Source of the DNA: Candidatus Aenigmatarchaeota archaeon
GTDB lineage: Archaea > Aenigmatarchaeota > Aenigmatarchaeia > QMZP01
Direction: 5' to 3'
Length of the DNA: 25,952 nt
Assembly (NCBI GenBank): GCA_039091855.1
Contig: JAWCLA010000005.1
Span: 3,361 to 29,312, forward strand
How positions within the stretch are numbered: position 1 is the first letter of the stretch; every line of letters starts with the position of its first letter. The notes under the pieces are model-generated. The model was given only the letters and a program-made list of their open reading frames with translations, searched no databases and had not been told where the DNA came from. Both the position numbers and the translations under genes were made by a program. Positions 1-9,254 of this stretch are shown one piece after another.

Positions 1-453
1 ATTAGCAGTTATATATCCTTCAGATAAATAGAATCCGATAAGCCTCATCAAATCCTTTGTGAAAAGCGGGTTGTCTTTAACTTTTGTGCTGTATGAAAAT
101 ACCAGATAGTCTCCTATTTCCAGTTTTTTAGCTTCTATGTATTTCGGTTTCATTGAAAGAAGTTCCTTTTTGTTTACCATTAGCAAATTACATTTGGAAG
201 ATTTTTTTCTGGCTTTCTTCAGCCATTTCCTTTTTATTGAGAGTACAGGGTGTTCTGGTGTTACGCTGAAAGAGTTATAGGGCGATACAAATGGAACAAT
301 CTTTAAAATAGTGCCTTTATGCTCTCTTACAAAAGTTTTCGCTACCAACGTTTCCTTTCCTTTGCTGTTAACAATGCTATCTCCTTTTTCAATTAACTCT
401 ATTGCTTTCCATCTTCCACTGCTTAAAACTACCTTTTCTTTTGCTGGCAGGCA
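1..453 (-). mobile_element. Intein with LAGLIDADG homing endonuclease in iscU (5' part only)
   Basis: After KTYG the protein reads CLPAKEKVVLSSGRWKAIELIEKGD (block A), SVTPEHP (block B TxxH), IEAKKLEIGDYL, then LIGFYLSEG (first LAGLIDADG motif). The frame is open to position 1. Confidence 0.92.
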
Positions 454-639
454 ACCATACGTCTTTACCTTTATGTCCTTAATCCTCTCCTTCCCGTCCT
501 TTCCTTTCTCAACTTTTATGTAAACTTTCATCACGTCCCCACAACGGGGGTTACCCACAGTGCCCACTCCGTCTGGGTTTTTAATCTCTCCCATATTGTG
601 GGGATTCAGAAAATGTTCCATTACCTCCTTGGAGTACAT
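1..639 (-). CDS. iscU: Fe-S cluster scaffold IscU/NifU-N, intein-interrupted, truncated by window edge
   Basis: Not in the ORF track because it has no stop in the window. Manual translation from ATG 639: MYSKEVMEHFLNPHNMGEIKNPDGVGTVGNPRCGDVMKVYIKV...IKDIKVKTYG-C, the classic IscU N-terminus. RBS GAGGTGA at 643-649. Lies downstream of iscS. Confidence 0.95.
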   Translation of the reverse strand, partial: MYSKEVMEHFLNPHNMGEIKNPDGVGTVGNPRCGDVMKVYIKVEKGKDGKERIKDIKVKTYGCLPAKEKVVLSSGRWKAIELIEKGDSIVNSKGKETLVAKTFVREHKGTILKIVPFVSPYNSFSVTPEHPVLSIKRKWLKKARKKSSKCNLLMVNKKELLSMKPKYIEAKKLEIGDYLVFSYSTKVKDNPLFTKDLMRLIGFYLSEGYITAN

Positions 640-2464: not shown

Positions 2465-3160
2465 TCACGCTAACCTTACATCTGTGTCAACATACTTTCT
2501 GCACAAATCCCTTAATTCCACCATCTCCTTCTCCGTGAATGGTTTTTCCGTCTCGAACTCTGGTTTAAGGGTGTTTTTCGGCCTGAACTGCTGCAGCCAG
2601 AATTTATTAGCGCCTTTCACGAGCATTGCCATCTCCTCCACATCCTCCCTCGTGTGCAAGGCAGGAAGAATTGTGCTCCTGAACTCGTGTCCAATACCTG
2701 AGTTTATTATCAGCCTTATGCTCTCTTTTATCTTTCCTGTGTCTGCTTTCACCCCTGAGGTTTTTTCATAGCTTTCAATCGGTCCCTTTATGTCCATTGC
2801 TATGAAATCCACAAGCCCTTTCTCTATGAGTTCTTTGAGCATTTCCGGATTTGAGCCGTTCGTGTCGAGCTTGGCATCGTAGCCAAGCCCCTTGATTTTT
2901 TTCATAAACTCAGGCAAATCCTTATGAATCGTTGGTTCGCCTCCTGATATAACAACACCATCGAGCCACTCTCTCCTTTCCTTAAGGAATTCCAAAACCT
3001 CTTCTTCAGGTATTGACCCAATTTCCTGTTGACACAACACGAGCTCCCTGTTGTGGCAGAAAGGGCACCTGAAATTGCACCCGCCAAGAAAAATGACAGC
3101 AGCCAGCCTTCCTGGGTAGTCTATAACCGAGTTCTTCTCGATTCCTTTTATCTCTACCAT
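2465..3160 (-). CDS. nrdG: Anaerobic ribonucleotide reductase activating enzyme (radical SAM)
   Basis: DYPG...IFLGGCNFRCPFCHN (CxxxCxxC), VVISGGEPT, KLDTNG, MDIK. Directly downstream of nrdD. Confidence 0.93.
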   Translation of the reverse strand: MVEIKGIEKNSVIDYPGRLAAVIFLGGCNFRCPFCHNRELVLCQQEIGSIPEEEVLEFLKERREWLDGVVISGGEPTIHKDLPEFMKKIKGLGYDAKLDTNGSNPEMLKELIEKGLVDFIAMDIKGPIESYEKTSGVKADTGKIKESIRLIINSGIGHEFRSTILPALHTREDVEEMAMLVKGANKFWLQQFRPKNTLKPEFETEKPFTEKEMVELRDLCRKYVDTDVRLA

Positions 3161-3190: not shown

Positions 3191-6100
3191 TTACGAAGCC
3201 ATGCACCTCATCGGCTTCTCAAGCGCCTTTTTCTCCGAGAATTCCAGCCTGTCCCTGAACTCTTCCTGCTTGCCGGCATTCCAGTTCCTTACGGGCCTGA
3301 AGTATCCAACAATCCTTGTGTAGACCTCGTTCTCTCTGCCACAAGTTGGGCATATTTCAACCTCTCCCTTCTGGTATCCGTGCTCCTTGCAAATGCTGAA
3401 AGTGGGTGTTATAGAGAAGTAAGGAAGTTTTGTGTTGAACGCTATCTTCTTCACGAGGGTTTTTGCCGCCTCGCCACTTGAAAGCCTCTCACCAAGGAAT
3501 GTGTGGAATATTGTCCCTCCTGTATAAAGAGGTTGTATGTCGTTCTGGTGCTCAAGAGCCTTTACCAAGTCGTCTGTGTAATTCACTGGCAGTTGGGTTG
3601 AATTTGTAAGATATGGTTCCTTCTCTCCTGCGGTGTATATGTCCGGATACATCTGCTTGTCAAGCCTGGCAAGCCTGTATGAAGTCGATTCGGCAGGCGT
3701 TGCCTCCAGGTTGTAAAGGTTTCCTGTCTCCATCTGGAACTGCCTTATCATATCCCTCATAAATTTAAGGACCTTTATCGTGAATGCCTTTCCCTCCGGT
3801 GTTGAGATGTCCTTCTTCAGGAAGTTGACGCAGCACTCGTTCATTCCACACAGGCCGATTGTTGAGAAATGGTTGTTGAACGTTCCCAAGTATGTCTTTG
3901 TATAAGGCATAAGCCCGTTCTGTAGGTTTTTCTCAATAACCTTCCTCTTTATCTCCAAAGCGTCCCTTGCCAAAAGCATATAGTGCTTAAGCTTATCGAA
4001 GAACTCCTCCTCGCTCTTTGCCTCATAACCAATCCTGTTCATGTTTATTGTGACCACTCCTATGGAACCCGTGTTGTCTCCAGGTCCCCACATGTTTCCA
4101 GGCCTGTTCATAAGCTCTTTCTGGTCTATATTAAGCCTGCAGCACATTGCCCTTATCGCACCTGGGTCCAAGTCGCTTCCAACATAGTTCTGGAAGTATG
4201 GAGTCCCGTATTTTGCTGTCAGCTCGAAAAGCAGCTTTGCATTCTCGCTTTCCCAATCGAAATCCTTTGTCACATTGTAGGTGGGTATGGGGAATGTGAA
4301 TATTCTTCCGTTCGCATCGCCTTCCAGCATCACCTCAAGGAATGCCTTGTTTATCATGTCCATCTCCTTCTGGCAGTCCCCATAAGTGAAGTCCTGCGGC
4401 TTTCCGCCAACTATTGCTGGCTCGTTCTTCAAATCCTCGGGAACAGTCCAGTCAAACGTGAGGTTAGAAAACGGGTATTGTGAATTGCCGCTTATAAAAA
4501 CCTTTCCATTTCTTCTAACAATTACTGTGCCGTTGGTCGTCGTCGGACACCACACCATCCCATCATAGTCAACATCCTCTATTCTCCCCACCTGCGTAAA
4601 ATCATGCTTTATAATTCTTACAGTATAAATCCCGTTTTCGTTCAAAGAACATGTGCTTCCCCATCCTGCCTTTACAGCAAGCTCCTGAAATATATCTGCA
4701 TCCTCTTTCTTCTTTGTATAAATCTTATTCTCCTTTGACCAGCCATCTGCTCTCATATAAGTTTCAAGGAATTCTCTTGCCTGCTCTGTTGAAAGATCTC
4801 TTACTGCAGAAGGAACATCTTTCTTGTATTCAGGAAAGAATTGTTTGTAAATTCTTTTTGAATCTGGTCTGCTTAGCCTGAATCTTACGCAGTTTCTTTT
4901 TCCGGTATATCCAGAAGCTCTCATCATCTCATCAAAATTAATTCCAAGATTACCAAGGGTCCCTCTTATTTCAACGCAGTTTTCAGGATTAATTTCAGCT
5001 GACTGGTGTATTGCTGTCCTTTCATTTTTGCAAAGACTGCCCTCTGAAACTATCCAAGATAAAAGGTTTACCATGTCTGAATTCATTTCCGTGCCTTTGA
5101 ATCTTCCTCCCAATGGCACAAGCGGCGTCTTGGTTTTCAGTTTATCTGCCTCCTCAAATACGTATTTAGACTCAGAAATCCCTTTCTTGTAATTATGTAT
5201 TCTTCTTAGAACCCTGTGATTAGGAGTGACCAATTGATCTGTTATCCTATTTACCAGTCTCTTCATCTTGCCTTTATAGTGATATTTTGTCATTCTCAGA
5301 ACAGGCAGGTATTCTATTTCCTCGCTTTTCATATTAAATGTGGCTATTAACTCTCCTTCTTTTAAATTTACACCCCTTTTCCATCCATCCTTGGTAAGGA
5401 TTTCTGTATCCTCACTAAAGCATCCCCACCTTGAAGGTATATTAAGTGAGAAAACGAGCTGCTGCATGTTCTGCTTTACTGCCTTGTAGTCAAGCTTCTC
5501 AACCTTCACGAAAGGCGCAAGGAATGTGTCAACGCTTGAGAATGCCTGAGCGCCTGCGAACTCCATCTGCAAGCAGCCGATATAGTTTACCATCTGGTGA
5601 ACAACCGTTGAAAGGTGCTTTGCCGGCTTGCAGTCAACCTTGTTCGGAACACCGCCAAAACCCCTCACGAGAAGGTTCTTTAGGGACCAGCCGGCACAAT
5701 TGTGAGCCAAAATACCATTGCATAAAAACGTGTGGGTTTTTGTAGTAATGTCATAAACAAATTCACTGTCATTTTTTATATACTCTATCTTCCTTAAGCT
5801 GCTGAACTGCTTTTTCTTGTAGAATTTCTTGGAATATTTGAAATCCCTTCCTATTTTCAGGCTTTCGGTGAAAAGATGTGATTTCTCCTGCGGTATGAAT
5901 AATGTGAGGGAATAAAGCTGCTTTCTCGGGGAGATTATGGTTTCCTTATATTTTCTCTCCCCAAAAGACTCGATTGTGCATAATGATGAGTTTATCCTTT
6001 GACATTCCAACCAAAACTGGATTTGGCTAAGAAGGGTCTTCGAGGTCATTCTTATGTTTACTCTTGATACCCATGGATCATCATTCCTAACAGCACCATC

Positions 6101-7978
6101 ACCATCTATGATCCCTGATATCATACCGCCGATAAATTCAGGGTTGTAATTCATAAAGTCGATAGGAAGATTCTTGTTTTCCGAGTATGGTCTGATAGTT
6201 GCAAATAGTGTCTGCATATCATGTGGAAGGCTGTTTATTGGAACATCAAGTATCATACTGCCTTCAATATGCTGTATACCGGCATTAGAACTTCTCTGTG
6301 AAAGGTTGTAGGCTATTCCGTTAATGTCAAGATATGAAACAAGCTTTCGGAAAACAGCGTCTTCAGCTGCCATCTCGAAGCTAAGGTACCCTTTTTTGTA
6401 ATACCCTTCTGATATGAAAAGTCCTATGAACCATCCATCAATTGCGGCCATGTTGATTTTATTATGTGGGCTCAACTCAAAATTGGGTGTTATGACATAA
6501 TTATTAAGGGTTATTTCGTCCGCGCGTTTTTCCTTTCTGCTATAAAATTCCGGAATAAAAACAGGTAGACTAAAGTTTGATTCACATGACTTGCACCTGT
6601 AATAGTCCTTCTCACCATCCTTTAATCTCTTTCTGGACCTTGTTTTAATTATATTTATTGAGTTGCATACAGGACAGGCAGAATTCTTGGTATCATCAAG
6701 GGTGATGAAGGGATGGTCTGCTGTGACTATTATATTGTGTCCATTGAACGAATTGAATGATATAAGAGGCTTGTCTGACTTGTGCCTAAGCAACCTCTCT
6801 ATGTCGGTCCATCCACCTTCATCAAGAATTTCATAGTCAGTTGAATATTTTATCTCGAATCCGTTATCTGTTTCTATAGGGGTATCAACGAGGTCAAAAA
6901 GCTGCTCAAGGCTAAGCGTAAGTATATCTTTTGTTTTCTTGTGCCTGACCACAACAACCTCATTCCTGTAAAAGGAATACCCTATCACCCCGTGTGACAA
7001 ATCGTGTATGTGGAAATATCCCTTCCTGTGAGCCTCCGCAATCGCAGGGGTGTACATCCTTGTAAGGTTGTAGTTGGCCATAACCTTTCCCGCTGCATAA
7101 AGAAGCAGTCCTGAAAATGAGTATTGCTCGTTGCTGTTCTCCCTTACCCTCCAGTCTTCCTGGTTTATGTAAGAGTCAATTGTCTGCTCAACATCCACAA
7201 ATGTTGACTTTGTTTCCCTTATCTTTGCCTGCTGCTCCCTGTAAAGTATGAACGCCTTAGCCGTCTTCGCGTGTCCGTTCTCTATCAGTATCTTCTCAAC
7301 TATGTCCTGTATCTGCTCAACCTGCGGTGGGTTCTTGTCAGTAAACCTTCCTTCCAGTGCCTCTACAACCTTGTCGGCAAGCCCCTCTGCTATGCTTTTG
7401 TCAGTCCCTCCAACAGACTCAGCTGCCTTCCATATAGCGTTTACTATTCTTTCCCTGTCAAACTTCACTACCGTTCCGTCCCTTTTTATGACATAATGAA
7501 GTTTCGGCTTCAGTCCGAGCCTTTCCCTTTCCTCTGCGAGCTTCTTCAGCTCTGCCTCAAATGATGTTATGTCAGTGAATTCCTTGTAAACAGAAGCGTA
7601 TCTTATGTATGCAACCTTGTCGGTCTCCTTCAGCTTCTTCATCACAAGCTCTCCTATGAATTTTGTAGAAACCTCTGGCTTCTCCGCCTTCCTAAGTTCG
7701 CTTTCAATCTCGTCCACTATCCTCTCTATCTGCTCTTGTGTTATTGTCCTTTTCTCGCAGGCCTTTGTTATGCTTGTCTGCAGCTTTCTCCTATCATAAT
7801 TTTCCCTTCTGCCGTCCTTCTTTATCACCGCCAAGTCAACGGCCTCAACCCTCTCGTAAGTCGTGAACCTCTTCCCGCATTTCTCGCACTCCCTTCTCCT
7901 TCTCGTAATCATTAGATCAGAAGTCTCCCTCTTGTCAATTACCTTGTTTTCCTCAGAACCGCAATAAGGGCATTTCAT
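3191..7978 (-). CDS. nrdD: NrdR repressor fused to class III anaerobic ribonucleotide reductase NrdD, with two inteins (1595-aa precursor, about 856 aa spliced)
   Basis: Start reassigned to ATG 7978 (MKCPYCG) with GGAGG upstream. NrdD motifs: own ATP-cone (VIKRDG), HIHDL, Y|CAGWSL, GAQAF, FTFPIPT, RAMCCRL finger loop, EATPAES, YLTNSTQ, zinc site CKEH...CPTC, glycyl-radical YTRIVGY. Confidence 0.95.
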   Translation of the reverse strand: MKCPYCGSEENKVIDKRETSDLMITRRRRECEKCGKRFTTYERVEAVDLAVIKKDGRRENYDRRKLQTSITKACEKRTITQEQIERIVDEIESELRKAEKPEVSTKFIGELVMKKLKETDKVAYIRYASVYKEFTDITSFEAELKKLAEERERLGLKPKLHYVIKRDGTVVKFDRERIVNAIWKAAESVGGTDKSIAEGLADKVVEALEGRFTDKNPPQVEQIQDIVEKILIENGHAKTAKAFILYREQQAKIRETKSTFVDVEQTIDSYINQEDWRVRENSNEQYSFSGLLLYAAGKVMANYNLTRMYTPAIAEAHRKGYFHIHDLSHGVIGYSFYRNEVVVVRHKKTKDILTLSLEQLFDLVDTPIETDNGFEIKYSTDYEILDEGGWTDIERLLRHKSDKPLISFNSFNGHNIIVTADHPFITLDDTKNSACPVCNSINIIKTRSRKRLKDGEKDYYRCKSCESNFSLPVFIPEFYSRKEKRADEITLNNYVITPNFELSPHNKINMAAIDGWFIGLFISEGYYKKGYLSFEMAAEDAVFRKLVSYLDINGIAYNLSQRSSNAGIQHIEGSMILDVPINSLPHDMQTLFATIRPYSENKNLPIDFMNYNPEFIGGMISGIIDGDGAVRNDDPWVSRVNIRMTSKTLLSQIQFWLECQRINSSLCTIESFGERKYKETIISPRKQLYSLTLFIPQEKSHLFTESLKIGRDFKYSKKFYKKKQFSSLRKIEYIKNDSEFVYDITTKTHTFLCNGILAHNCAGWSLKNLLVRGFGGVPNKVDCKPAKHLSTVVHQMVNYIGCLQMEFAGAQAFSSVDTFLAPFVKVEKLDYKAVKQNMQQLVFSLNIPSRWGCFSEDTEILTKDGWKRGVNLKEGELIATFNMKSEEIEYLPVLRMTKYHYKGKMKRLVNRITDQLVTPNHRVLRRIHNYKKGISESKYVFEEADKLKTKTPLVPLGGRFKGTEMNSDMVNLLSWIVSEGSLCKNERTAIHQSAEINPENCVEIRGTLGNLGINFDEMMRASGYTGKRNCVRFRLSRPDSKRIYKQFFPEYKKDVPSAVRDLSTEQAREFLETYMRADGWSKENKIYTKKKEDADIFQELAVKAGWGSTCSLNENGIYTVRIIKHDFTQVGRIEDVDYDGMVWCPTTTNGTVIVRRNGKVFISGNSQYPFSNLTFDWTVPEDLKNEPAIVGGKPQDFTYGDCQKEMDMINKAFLEVMLEGDANGRIFTFPIPTYNVTKDFDWESENAKLLFELTAKYGTPYFQNYVGSDLDPGAIRAMCCRLNIDQKELMNRPGNMWGPGDNTGSIGVVTINMNRIGYEAKSEEEFFDKLKHYMLLARDALEIKRKVIEKNLQNGLMPYTKTYLGTFNNHFSTIGLCGMNECCVNFLKKDISTPEGKAFTIKVLKFMRDMIRQFQMETGNLYNLEATPAESTSYRLARLDKQMYPDIYTAGEKEPYLTNSTQLPVNYTDDLVKALEHQNDIQPLYTGGTIFHTFLGERLSSGEAAKTLVKKIAFNTKLPYFSITPTFSICKEHGYQKGEVEICPTCGRENEVYTRIVGYFRPVRNWNAGKQEEFRDRLEFSEKKALEKPMRCMAS
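4484..5422 (-). mobile_element. Intein 2 in nrdD (313 aa, LAGLIDADG-like, ends in GN)
   Basis: IPSRWG|CFSEDTEILTKDGWK, block B VTPNHR, LLSWIVSEG and FLETYMRADG, C-terminus YDGMVWCPTTTNGTVIVRRNGKVFISGN|SQYPFSN. Confidence 0.93.
5699..6976 (-). mobile_element. Intein 1 in nrdD (426 aa, Ser1, LAGLIDADG endonuclease, inserted zinc ribbon)
   Basis: VIGY|SFYRNE..., block B VTADHPF, FIGLFISEG and ISGIIDGDG, C-terminus VYDITTKTHTFLCNGILAHN|CAGWSL. Confidence 0.93.
7535..7978 (-). other. nrdR: Full-length NrdR domain (zinc ribbon plus ATP-cone) at the N-terminus of the nrdD ORF
   Basis: MKCPYCG...KVIDKR...RRRRECEKCGKRFTTYER, VIKKDGRRE.YDR.K, and DKVAYIRYASVYKEF. This is the whole NrdR signature, with no stop before NrdD. 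Confidence 0.92.
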
Positions 7979-7981
7979 ATA

Positions 7982-8128
7982 TTTCGCCTCCTGACAATTC
8001 AATCTCAACGACTTGACGGGGAAGGTGTCTCCTGACACCTTCAGGCAAGGTTTCGCCTCCTGACAATTCAATCTCAACGACTTGACGGGGAAGGTGAGTC
8101 ACAGACTGATATAAAGTCTGTCACCTTC
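7982..8128 (-). repeat. Tandem pair of a structured leader element (46-bp perfect direct repeat plus variable hairpin)
   Basis: + strand TTTCGCCTCCTGACAATTCAATCTCAACGACTTGACGGGGAAGGTG at 7982-8027 and 8051-8096. Each copy continues into a GAAGG...CCTTC hairpin, ending at 8042 and 8128. Confidence 0.95.
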
Positions 8129-8206
8129 AGCCTGTTTGTCCCCGTTATAGCTTTGGCTGGATGTAGTAAAGCCTAAAAAAACAAACGGGGAGAGGGTGGG
8201 AAAGGC

Positions 8207-8276
8207 AAACTACCACTTGGTCATAATAACACAAGCACTTGTGCCTTATCCCACGCTCCAACACAACATCTTGTAG
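8207..8276. promoter_or_regulatory. Tandem NrdR-box-like operators
   Basis: ACACAACATCTTGTAG (8261-8276) fits the NrdR box consensus acaCwAtATaTwGtgt. Weaker boxes are ACACAAGCACTTGTGC (8229-8244) and AAACTACCACTTGGTC (8207-8222). Offsets are 32 and 22 bp. Confidence 0.75.
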
Positions 8277-8295
8277 TAAACTATTTTACTTAAGG

Positions 8296-8303
8296 TATTT
8301 AAA
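8296..8303 (-). promoter_or_regulatory. TATA box of nrdR-nrdD-nrdG
   Basis: TTTAAATA on the minus strand. The expected start site near 8272 falls inside the best NrdR box. Confidence 0.6.
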
Positions 8304-8330
8304 TAAATTTGGATTGTTGAAAAGATATTT

Positions 8331-9254
8331 CTAAAAATCTCCTTTGTTGTGAAGATTTTTTCGTTTTTGACTTTCAACTTTCTCCCAGAATTTCACAACG
8401 CTTTCCCATTCTGTTATCGAAACAGGCCTGTTTATATCAGGAAATCTCGAAGCCCTCCAGCAAGGCCTGTATTGAGATAGTATATTCACATAGGTATTCT
8501 TTCCGATTTCCTGCGCTATCCAACTGAGTACAGGTTTTGCATCGCATTCTATATGGCCAGGCATCACCAAAACCCTTATCATCAAGTCGCTGTCCTTCTT
8601 CGCAGCCAGATGGTTCCTCTTTGCCGCCTCTGGATAGTTTTGAGTTTGGCTGAGTCTCCTTCCGCACTCTTCTTTGAAATACCTGAAATCAAGCAGGTAG
8701 ACATCAACTATTCCCCTAAGAAGTTCTGCTGTCTTCTCAGAATAGTAGGCATTGGAATTGAAAACAATTGGAATGTTCCCCTCTGCCTTTTCCAACACCT
8801 TCAAAATGAAGGGGACATAGGGAGTCGGGTCTCCACCGACAAAATTTATGTTTTTACATACAGGAGCCATGCTCTCAATCCATTCTGCAACCCTTTCGAT
8901 GGTCCAACTTTCTCCCACCTGATAGAAAATGCTCGCAGGAGCGTTTTGGCAGTAGCAGCAACGCATTGTACATCCAGATTCAAAAAGCGTTGCCGAGGGT
9001 ATAAGCTCCTCTTCCTCTCCCCAATGCGTATGCGCTCCAAAAATCTTCCACTCCTTTCCGACGCCACAGAATCCAATCTCGCCTTCCAGCCTGTTAACCC
9101 CACACTTCCTCTCGCACAACTCACATTTTTCAAGGATTTTCCAAGCTTCCTTTATTTTCTTTTGAAGCAGGCCTGTTTCCTTGGCAATATGGAATCTGGG
9201 CTTCTCCTTTCCTTCCAGAATCCGCTTGTAGTGTGGAAGCAAATGCAATTTCAT
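8331..9254 (-). CDS. PflX-like radical SAM Fe-S protein
   Basis: CELCERKCGVNR...G.CG, HWGEE, CTMRCCYCQN, NINFVGGDPT, DVYLLDFRY, RVLVMPGHIEC, QYRP. Confidence 0.88.
   Translation of the reverse strand: MKLHLLPHYKRILEGKEKPRFHIAKETGLLQKKIKEAWKILEKCELCERKCGVNRLEGEIGFCGVGKEWKIFGAHTHWGEEEELIPSATLFESGCTMRCCYCQNAPASIFYQVGESWTIERVAEWIESMAPVCKNINFVGGDPTPYVPFILKVLEKAEGNIPIVFNSNAYYSEKTAELLRGIVDVYLLDFRYFKEECGRRLSQTQNYPEAAKRNHLAAKKDSDLMIRVLVMPGHIECDAKPVLSWIAQEIGKNTYVNILSQYRPCWRASRFPDINRPVSITEWESVVKFWEKVESQKRKNLHNKGDF

Follow-up and report, generated by a model that had tools for sequence, protein, structure and literature searches.

The locus described here raises the question of whether a ribonucleotide reductase (RNR) can carry the repressor of its own gene within the same polypeptide chain. 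In the window (the whole stretch of 25,952 nucleotides that was analysed), a single gene on the reverse strand encodes the repressor NrdR followed by the class III enzyme NrdD (Table 1). The initial annotation had read a full NrdR that continues without a stop into NrdD, with two ATP-cones in tandem and with no start in the linker for a separate NrdD, and all of this stands up; the linker sequence that it quoted is present. Translation of the minus strand gives 1595 residues with zero internal stops, and the NrdR profile TIGR00244 covers residues 1–147 over all 147 of its positions (174.9 bits, NCBIfam cut-off 124.65; 181.5 bits for the fusion in a whole-genome search). The same chain matches NF006126, ribonucleoside triphosphate reductase, with 1023.5 bits (cut-off 548), TIGR02487 with 496.1 bits (cut-off 326.35) and PF13597 with 580 bits, and Pfam places Zn_ribbon_NrdR at residues 1–42, ATP-cone in two stretches, NRDD, Intein_splicing and LAGLIDADG_3 on it. 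The borders of the two cones were set with a purpose-built ATP-cone HMM. Between residues 100 and 200, the only in-frame ATG, GTG or TTG codons are GTG112, ATG113 and GTG171, so none falls within the linker. A free-standing NrdR of about 140–220 residues is thus not what is found here; the chain runs into NrdD without a stop or a start.

Table 1. Features of the nrdR-nrdD locus, with positions counted from the first letter of the window
Feature	Position	Strand	Evidence or remark
nrdG, class III RNR activase	2465..3160	(-)	TIGR02495 NrdG2, 218.2 bits (cut-off 131.15)
nrdR-nrdD fusion gene	3191..7978	(-)	1595 codons + stop
NrdD extein 3, residues 1166-1595	3191..4483	(-)	MCCRL loop, NLEATPAE, C-terminal Cys/His cluster, RIVGY
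Probable intein 2, residues 853-1165, 313 aa	4484..5422	(-)	insertion relative to intein-less orthologues
NrdD extein 2, residues 761-852	5423..5698	(-)	
Intein 1, residues 335-760, 426 aa, LAGLIDADG endonuclease domain	5699..6976	(-)	Intein_splicing 44.5 bits, LAGLIDADG_3 29.1 bits
NrdD extein 1, residues 249-334	6977..7234	(-)	ends in ...HGVIGY
ATP-cone 2, NrdD's own, residues 163-248	7235..7492	(-)	matches cones of solved NrdD, NrdB and NrdA chains
Linker, residues 138-162 (25 residues)	7493..7567	(-)	NrdR C-terminal helix + short coil
ATP-cone 1, NrdR type, residues 49-137	7568..7834	(-)	aligns to E. coli NrdR 1-150
NrdR Zn ribbon, residues 1-42	7853..7978	(-)	PF22811, 61.4 bits
Long structured leader between box 2 and ATG	7979..8228	(-)	
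Predicted NrdR box 2	8229..8244		PWM score 14.9; 266 nt upstream of ATG; 32 bp from box 1
Predicted NrdR box 1	8261..8276		PWM score 19.0; 298 nt upstream of ATG
TATA-like element	8296..8303	(-)	starts 27 nt upstream of box 1; kept in G002 and G003; read from sequence

The NrdD portion of the chain is predicted to be a catalytically intact class III RNR. The catalytic motifs GY|C (with the Cys following intein 1), MCCRL, NLEATPAE and RIVGY are present, and by way of P0002, an intein-less orthologue of 857 amino acids from G004 that is 85% identical, an alignment with NrdD from T. maritima could be made for the Cys of GYC, for the CC loop, for the Glu of NLEATPAE and for RIVGY. We take these to be the active-site Cys, the Cys-Cys pair, the functional Glu and the glycyl radical site, respectively. 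The C-terminal metal site reads Cys-x2-His ... Cys-x2-Cys instead of having four Cys, and the aligned T. maritima chain itself has no clean CxxC in the first half. The gene for the activase NrdG follows on the same strand after 30 nt. Two insertions interrupt the body of the enzyme, and neither is present in orthologues with 85% identity over the exteins. Intein 1 starts with Ser and ends in His-Asn, directly before the Cys of the GYC motif, which is the conserved active-site residue; the splicing domain of the intein is recognised by PF14890 (44.5–53.3 bits, cut-off 35.8) and TIGR01443 (25.1 bits, cut-off 15.6). The second insertion is a probable intein that starts with Cys and ends in Gly-Asn, followed by Ser, with a sub-threshold Pfam match (Intein_splicing, 21 bits compared to a cut-off of 35.8). 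After removal of both, the mature protein has 856 amino acids. Solved NrdD proteins with an N-terminal ATP-cone (P. copri, 8P23 and others; S. thermophilus, 9D3X; T. maritima, 4COI) share the NRDD barrel, the Cys/Cys-Cys/Glu set and RIVGY, and NrdD of this type resembles the window's protein in having a cone of its own and an adjoining NrdG activase. The protein of the window differs from them by the extra Zn ribbon and NrdR-type cone in front, and by the two inteins, one of them exactly before the active-site Cys.

In the NrdR module, the DNA-contact residues are in place. The Zn ribbon has both CxxC pairs (C3, C6, C31, C34) as well as K12, D15, R17, R26–29 and R37. PMC9110341 gives R12, R26–29 and R37 as DNA contacts of the S. 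coelicolor NrdR, and D15 and R17 as base-reading residues; compared to these, position 12 is a conservative change from R to K and the other DNA-contact residues are the same. Across 61 fused proteins there is no variation at C3, C6, R17, R27–29, C31, C34 and R37, while conservation is at least 90% for D15 and R26. K53, E59, K65 and Y131 align with the nucleotide site of the E. coli NrdR. According to the published comparison, K53 of E. coli NrdR corresponds to K50 in S. coelicolor; E56, K62 and Y128 are given here as the further counterparts on the assumption of the same offset of three. An AF2 model of residues 1–315 (mean pLDDT 79.6) has solved NrdR chains as its top fold matches (9fvr with TMt 0.71, 7p37 with TMt 0.64), and P. 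aeruginosa NrdA (5im3) is also among the matches. The linker is modelled as a helix (137–153) followed by a coil (154–161), with pLDDT values of 58–69, and the pTM of 0.44 means that the mutual arrangement of the domains is not fixed by the model.

Stand-alone NrdR from S. coelicolor (7P37/7P3F/7P3Q) and E. coli (9FVR, 9FXK, 9GEX) have in common the Zn ribbon, the RRRR motif, D15, R17 and a two-site ATP-cone. They also share with the window's gene the palindromic box pairs 31–32 bp apart upstream of RNR genes. Unlike these free proteins of 140–220 amino acids, the NrdR of the window is the N-terminus of the very enzyme that it is predicted to regulate, and it is found in the setting of an archaeal (TATA-type) promoter. 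Stand-alone NrdR binds DNA as a compact tetramer, whereas in the chain described here every NrdR module is tethered, by some 25 residues, to an NrdD body of about 80 kDa.

The promoter of the fusion gene has two predicted NrdR boxes, which follow closely after the TATA-like element. A PWM scan of the 689-kb genome, in which a pair was defined as two boxes that each score at least 8 at spacings of 20–22, 30–33 or 41–43 bp, found exactly one pair, and this is the one upstream of the fusion gene. The centre of box 2 contains G/C, whereas the S. coelicolor NrdR–DNA complex kinks at weakly stacking AT bases. Using a PWM that was seeded with boxes picked by eye in the same relatives (including box 2 of the window), and thresholds that were set after seeing the data, all 14 type-A loci have at least one box scoring at least 12 within 600 nt upstream; in 7/14 there is a pair at 30–33 bp, while the other seven have no second box by that criterion. 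Shuffled upstream regions yield approximately zero, and the chance expectation is about 0.005 strong boxes per locus. Around the second RNR of the same genome (class II-like, C34:798-2621), no box scoring at least 5 is found in C34:1-4200. Single strong boxes elsewhere in this genome (C37:12742, C12:7668, C35:21637) are inside long ORFs; with 10 hits scoring at least 12, a number close to the 4–7 of shuffled genomes, they were taken as chance.

Between the boxes and the start codon lies the leader, which carries an exact 46-nt duplication (7982–8027 and 8051–8096, found by eye and by BLAST) that includes a Shine-Dalgarno-like GGAGG. Tandem Repeats Finder reports no repeats in 7900–8400. At gathering thresholds Rfam has 0 matches in the whole window, which places the leader outside all described RNA families, and at E values up to 5 only two eukaryotic families at chance level come up in 7950–8340. 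A covariance model of the three-way junction in the leader (R1) had matches in four of the 47 genomes of the family, and these are the four that had served to build it.

The fusion is a widespread archaeal architecture and not a rarity of this genome. It is present in frame and without inteins in four relatives (G002, G003, G004 and G017), so it is not the case that close relatives all have separate nrdR and nrdD genes; in these four, as in the genome of the window, the fusion is the sole NrdR match. A domain-architecture search, which the initial annotation had proposed, found more than 100 proteins in the databases that combine Zn ribbon, ATP-cone and NRDD, and they belong to DPANN, Asgard and Bathyarchaeia. 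Among the matches listed, 117 of 120 database proteins have the same fusion, and when the Zn ribbon alone was searched in proteins of 471–1500 amino acids the same architecture was found in 112/120, again among the matches listed. The Zn ribbon occurs in 173 of the 371 genomes of this DPANN phylum, in which NrdR is thus not rare. In the scan of the phylum, 39 of 150 Zn-ribbon matches among those listed are in frames of at least 325 amino acids, i.e. about a quarter are fused. In 13 of the 15 relatives that have a stand-alone nrdR, this gene is directly followed by the gene of an RNR with an ATP-cone (NrdD in eight of the 13), and at least eight changes between the fused and the split state are needed on the tree of NrdD. 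The relatives thus form a series: separate nrdR and nrdD, the full fusion, a Zn ribbon joined to a single-cone NrdD or to an RNR of class I/II, and dead NrdD-like forms. The single-cone forms have the Zn ribbon attached straight to the ATP-cone that belongs to NrdD itself. In G015 and G022, the Zn ribbon is retained on NrdD-like proteins that are catalytically dead as judged from sequence; the remaining RNRs of these two genomes are of class I/II only, and one of these RNR genes in G015 is preceded by a box pair. As to its origin, the fusion probably arose when an adjoining nrdR-nrdD pair lost the stop between the genes.

No description of a natural NrdR–RNR fusion was found in the accessible parts of the literature compared, which included PMC9110341, PMC3019208, PMC11226230, PMC12176259, PMC12051234 and bioRxiv 2025.03.28.645925; fused forms may figure in the NrdR survey that supplements PMC9110341. 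JGI labels the fusion automatically as 'anaerobic ribonucleoside-triphosphate reductase/transcriptional regulator NrdR'.

The reading we prefer, with a probability of about 65%, is that of a self-repressing enzyme, i.e. an enzyme and its repressor in a single chain. We infer that the module binds DNA; with NrdR boxes in the promoter of the gene itself, the enzyme probably represses its own synthesis. The earlier proposal of an RNR whose own repressor acts on its own promoter is supported at the level of sequence, by the intact DNA-contact residues, by the sole box pair of the genome and by boxes at fused genes in relatives without any other NrdR. The initial annotation also suggested that the unspliced precursor, too, might repress. 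NrdR is not known to act on any promoter of an archaeon. In the mechanism that we propose, the inteins would splice out to give the active 856-residue glycyl-radical NrdD, which the NrdG encoded downstream would activate, and the complete NrdR module at its N-terminus would hang on the enzyme by a short flexible tether. When dATP rises, the NrdR-type cone would hold ATP in the inner and dATP in the outer site. The nucleotide-loaded cones may then allow the Zn ribbons of two NrdD dimers to bind in pairs to the boxes, which are spaced by 32 bp. The boxes overlap the site, just beyond the TATA element, where transcription presumably starts, and binding would block transcription of nrdRD-nrdG. The second, NrdD-type cone would throttle catalysis separately. 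Because repressor and enzyme are in one chain, the dose of the one would equal the dose of the other, giving direct negative autoregulation.

An assembly or sequencing error that erased a stop or shifted the frame between two neighbouring genes would produce the same picture, and relatives do more often have a stand-alone nrdR with nrdD directly downstream. Against this, the junction at 7480–7560 is crossed without indels by Logan contigs of three sequencing runs: X1 (7200–7681), X2 (7264–8010) and X4 (7380–7619). The only variant in it is 7481 C>T in X4, which is synonymous, and the contigs of a further run, X3, do not bridge it. All four runs come from one study, possibly the source of the window, and are therefore not independent support. 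The same unbroken frame is however found in the independent assemblies of the four relatives and in the more than 100 database proteins, which come from several sources. An artefact can thus practically be dismissed, and the check for an assembly error that had been suggested for this junction found none. It could still be that the single chain is a precursor, from which proteolysis in the linker or unconventional internal initiation makes a separate NrdR and NrdD. Within the model, confidence is lowest in the linker, and the repeated changes on the NrdD tree suggest that both the fused and the split state are viable. But no ATG, GTG or TTG is in frame between residues 114 and 170, and cleavage could not release a functional NrdR from the single-cone forms, because there the Zn ribbon sits directly on NrdD's cone. 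We consider a precursor to be improbable.

Hardly more probable is that the fusion is real but has lost DNA binding, with the NrdR module serving as an extra module for allostery or oligomerisation and the boxes being relics. RNRs with several N-terminal ATP-cones do exist, with the P. aeruginosa NrdA among the fold matches as a case in point, half of the type-A loci have no clear second box, and an NrdR-like tetramer on such a large enzyme is sterically doubtful. What speaks against it is that R17, R27–29 and R37 (and D15 and R26 in at least 90%) are kept in fused proteins from distant archaeal groups, that every type-A locus has at least one strong box where almost none is expected by chance, that these genomes contain no other NrdR that could use the boxes, and that the Zn ribbon persists even on a dead enzyme.

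The self-repressing enzyme would have parallels elsewhere. PutA and BirA are trigger enzymes, in which an enzyme with a DNA-binding domain represses the genes of its own pathway, and as proposed for the window's protein, the dose of the regulator tracks that of the enzyme. The folds and ligands are unrelated, and different from PutA and BirA, the sensor of the window's protein is a dedicated ATP/dATP cone, and an entire repressor that existed beforehand provides the DNA-binding module. Rozman Grinberg et al. (2022) present NrdR and the ATP-cone as a case where one mobile domain controls both the gene and the activity of an enzyme; here, these two levels of control would be welded into one polypeptide. 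The fusion is also a natural test of what happens when the oligomer-based switch of NrdR is tied to a dimeric enzyme, and the orthologues without inteins lend themselves to expression, EMSA and cryo-EM.

For the archaea, the presence of the Zn ribbon in nearly half of the genomes of this phylum revises the picture of NrdR as rare. The series from split genes to the full fusion, the single-cone fusion and a dead-enzyme regulator can be read as a path from an enzyme to a transcription factor. A bolder idea, which we regard as speculative and rather unlikely, is that placing the DNA-binding module of NrdR on RNR subunits is a widespread archaeal strategy by which the oligomeric, allosteric or radical state of the enzyme is passed on to the Zn ribbons. 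If this were true, a dead NrdD that keeps its Zn ribbon and ATP-cone would be the end point, a pure sensor-regulator for another RNR, and transcription would report the state of the enzyme and not dATP alone.

The window protein is encoded by a single frame of 1595 codons without interruption. The initial annotation, which had described a complete NrdR in one frame with the class III ribonucleotide reductase (RNR) NrdD, is confirmed: the NrdR equivalog model TIGR00244 covers residues 1–147 end-to-end (174.9 bits, cut-off 124.65), and the remainder is a class III RNR, far over the cut-off of NF006126 (1023.5 bits). Pfam finds the NrdR zinc ribbon (residues 1–42), two ATP-cones, NRDD and intein/LAGLIDADG domains, and a custom ATP-cone HMM likewise recovers the tandem cones that had been claimed. 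The linker said to lack a Met start for NrdD is also present. Within residues 100–200 the only in-frame ATG, GTG or TTG codons are GTG112, ATG113 and GTG171; none lies inside the linker, so a separate NrdD start there is impossible. The frame extends to an in-frame TTG at 8077, a by-product of the duplicated leader segment, and the ATG at 7978 comes after a GGAGG and yields the N-terminus common to all relatives.

Coordinates of features in the window, its genome (G000) and related genomes
Feature	Location	Strand	Basis or remark
NrdR-NrdD fusion	window 3191-7978	-	translation
ATP-cones of window protein	residues 49-137 and 163-248	-	custom ATP-cone HMM
Insertion 1	residues 335-760, 426 aa	-	Ser to His-Asn, then Cys
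Insertion 2 (probable intein)	residues 853-1165, 313 aa	-	Cys to Gly-Asn, then Ser
Leader	window 7979-8262	-	folding energy
Exact direct duplication, 46 nt	window 7982-8027 and 8051-8096		
Putative NrdR boxes 1 and 2	window 8261-8276 and 8229-8244		PWM; spacing 32 bp
Second radical-SAM gene, 307 aa	window 8331-9254	-	directly upstream of fusion promoter
IscU/NifU with Hint insertion	window 1-639, on to G000:C34:2539	-	domain matches
Class II-like RNR	G000:C34:798-2621, just beyond window	-	PF02867
Single-cone loci	L024-L031, L034 (G009-G026), L032 (G027)		
Dead forms	L033 (G015:C23), L035 (G022:C111)		zinc ribbon, ATP-cone, NrdD-like core

In Rozman Grinberg et al. 2022 (PMC9110341) the DNA contacts of the S. 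coelicolor NrdR are given as R12, R26–29 and R37, with D15 and R17 reading bases, and nucleotide-site residues are named as well. The window protein retains K12, D15, R17, R26–29, R37 and both CxxC pairs, and alignment to E. coli NrdR shows equivalents of the nucleotide-site lysines, glutamate and tyrosine. When residues 1–315 were aligned with 60 fused proteins, hand-picked from 120 listed to span identity levels, with partial and intein-bearing ones excluded, C3, C6, R17, R27–29, C31, C34, R37, K53 and K65 were invariant, and D15, R26 and E59 at least 90% conserved. An AF2 model of residues 1–315 (mean pLDDT 79.6, pTM 0.44) has confident domains with a low-confidence helix and coil between them, and its top structural matches are solved NrdR chains. 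The top fold match, PDB 9a6n, is an 'integrative model of SOJ-NRDR', which implies a reported contact between NrdR and Soj in some bacterium. At sequence level the protein has every NrdR feature sought but the free-standing state, and in this it differs from stand-alone NrdR.

As for the enzyme, an alignment of the intein-less 857-aa orthologue of genome G004 (P0002) to T. maritima NrdD (4COI) pairs up the GYC cysteine, the Cys-Cys loop, the NLEATPAE glutamate and the RIVGY glycyl-radical motif. The window protein carries the same catalytic motifs, the activase gene adjoins, and every other NrdD feature sought was found, save that the C-terminal metal site has Cys-x2-His and Cys-x2-Cys in place of four cysteines; the aligned T. 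maritima chain likewise has no clean CxxC in the first half of this site. No RNR other than the fused NrdD was found in G004 and G017 (completeness 88% and 91%), where it must therefore be active. Alignment to P0002 reveals two insertions in the window protein. Insertion 1 is an intein: the cysteine after it is the conserved one of GYC, and it has splicing-domain and LAGLIDADG matches over the cut-off; intein matches to insertion 2 are sub-threshold only, and it is therefore called a probable intein. The three exteins together make 856 aa, 85% identical to P0002.

The host is a DPANN archaeon with a 689 kb genome (completeness 84%), and the window also encodes ribosomal protein L15e, an ATP-dependent DNA ligase and a TrmB regulator. 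Downstream of the fusion the same strand carries nrdG (TIGR02495, 218 bits), a cysteine desulfurase gene and a gene for an IscU/NifU Fe-S scaffold with a Hint domain inside. The scaffold is split by the Hint-type insertion (488-aa frame; NifU_N at 1–64, then a Vint/Hint match), probably a third intein in this small gene cluster. Directly after iscU, on the same strand, is a second RNR, class II-like, without an ATP-cone (608-aa frame); no NrdR box scoring at least 5 occurs in the first 4200 nt of contig C34. The 307-aa radical-SAM protein looks like a glycyl-radical activase, but no NCBIfam model reaches its cut-off with it (the nearest, NrdG2, gives 62.2 bits where 131.15 is required).

Most relatives have palindromes of the ACACAATATNTTGTGT type ahead of their nrdR or fused genes. 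A PWM was built from 20 of them, with seeds from these same relatives, the window's box 2 included, and thresholds fixed after viewing the data. A TATA-like element, kept in G002 and G003, starts 27 nt upstream of box 1. The whole genome contains 10 single hits scoring at least 12, against 4–7 in shuffled genomes, and one pair at spacings of 20–22, 30–33 or 41–43 bp, which is the window's own. Among relatives, a pair was counted when a box of at least 12 and a partner of at least 5 lay 30–33 bp apart, at most 600 nt upstream. Such pairs were found at 7/14 full-fusion (type A) loci and 10/14 loci with a zinc ribbon on single-cone NrdD (type B), where 12 and 11 of the 14, respectively, were typed by domain scan and the others by genus and frame length only. 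The count was 7/14 for stand-alone nrdR, 1/1 for the class I/II fusion, 0/2 for dead forms and about 0 in shuffled controls; type-A locus L069 and stand-alone locus L012, for which no start was obtained, were left out. None of the 14 type-A loci is without a box scoring at least 12; in the distant ones this box sits 25–42 nt ahead of the start codon, and a degenerate partner is found some 32 bp further upstream. In G000, G002, G003, G004 and G017, the five family members found with a full fusion, it is the sole NrdR match of the genome. Any use of the boxes there would fall to the fused protein.

Between boxes and ATG the window has a long leader (−101.1 kcal/mol, z = −4.04, 0/200 shuffles as good) that contains a three-way junction, with box 2 as its second hairpin and a T-run after it. 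The junction is kept, with a few compensatory changes, in the four fusion-bearing genomes of the genus, and its covariance model R1, built from these four, matches only them among 47 family genomes; the leader has no Rfam match. Possible readings are an attenuator, a riboswitch-like element or just a long palindrome at the DNA level. The 46-nt duplication in this leader has a 69-nt period and takes in the GGAGG that precedes the start codon; since Logan contigs break there and depth is raised, how many copies the actual genome has is uncertain.

Three rival explanations should be considered. That the fusion is an artefact was addressed at the junction itself (7480–7560), where Logan contigs from three sequencing runs cross with zero indels and one variant, which is synonymous; the runs all come from one hot-spring metagenome study that may include the window's source, and for this reason are weak support alone. 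Other assemblies are independent support for a real fusion. The 41 related genomes contain 20 full-length NrdR matches, 15 in frames of 153–201 aa and 5 in long frames, those of G000, G003 (889 aa), G004 (857 aa), G017 (858 aa) and G002, the last truncated where its contig ends. The fusion is not unique to the window. A word-indexed protein search with P0002 residues 1–260 found the expected architecture of zinc ribbon, ATP-cone and NRDD (PF22811, PF03477, PF13597) in 117 of the 120 proteins listed; 118 of the 120 have two ATP-cones by the custom HMM. Aenigmarchaeota, Woesearchaeota, Nanoarchaeia, Micrarchaeia, Heimdallarchaeota/Asgard and Bathyarchaeia are among the names of their sources, the nearest named protein comes from an Aenigmarchaeota MAG, and several carry the JGI label 'anaerobic ribonucleoside-triphosphate reductase/transcriptional regulator NrdR'. 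The other two rivals, both rated as unlikely, accept the fusion: the NrdR half may be a DNA-blind allosteric module, a reading to be set beside the conserved DNA-contact residues and the box pairs, or the single chain may be separated post-translationally.

A zinc-ribbon-only query among proteins of 471–1500 aa gave 131 matches, with NRDD in 112 and a class I/II RNR barrel in 2 of the 120 listed. Across the phylum the zinc ribbon occurs in 173/371 genomes, and frames of at least 325 aa account for 39 of the 150 matches listed (27 further matches lie beyond those). Five predicted proteins (P0140, P0141, P0142, P0153, P0167) join the NrdR zinc ribbon and ATP-cone to unrelated domains (AAA/MgsA-like, zinc protease, SecD/F-like, sigma-70 factor, EamA); with one contig each, they may be gene-calling run-through.

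The relatives show several arrangements. Stand-alone nrdR is directly followed by an ATP-cone RNR gene in 13 of 15 cases, 8 of them NrdD; at L012 and L014 none lies within the locus. In twelve relatives, most with box pairs upstream, the zinc ribbon leads straight into the single ATP-cone of the RNR itself. The RNR of G027 is of class I/II (903 aa), with a box pair upstream. The dead cores of G015 and G022 are without the GYC cysteine, the glutamate and the entire glycyl-radical C-terminus. Both genomes have class I/II RNRs and no further NrdD, and in G015 the open frame of one class I/II RNR has a box pair (L040:2360-2405) some 300 nt ahead of it. These dead proteins are probably pure regulators. 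Stand-alone frames of 91–144 aa in G008, G012, G014, G015, G024, G031, G034 and G039 match the ATP-cone part of NrdR only (profile positions about 41–130) and would be free ATP-cone proteins. A quick IQ-TREE NrdD tree of 41 rows, with only 10 hand-picked database proteins and without L019, L026 and L062 (incomplete at contig ends) and L032 (other RNR class), requires at least 8 changes among four states; no directions of change are drawn because it is unrooted and quick, with dead forms on long branches. The window (G000) shares a starred clade with four more full fusions (G003, G004, G017, G317), and the full fusion occurs in both of two deeply separated NrdD subclasses.

One chain carries an intact repressor module and an intact enzyme, with the activase adjacent and a predicted box pair in the promoter. 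Carrying over the dATP, box and cone steps from the stand-alone NrdR system, we infer that dATP bound at the outer site of the first cone would favour a form in which pairs of zinc ribbons occupy the two boxes across the start site and so shut off transcription, and that cone 2 would control catalysis; in a single chain, repressor dose would equal enzyme dose. By analogy the fusion may work like a trigger enzyme, and we take PutA and BirA to be its analogues. Recent NrdR papers, in the passages concerned, describe NrdR as rare or absent in archaea, and a search of the main texts of papers gave no account of a NrdR-RNR fusion in nature. The NrdR-NrdD fusion is of real interest for RNR specialists.
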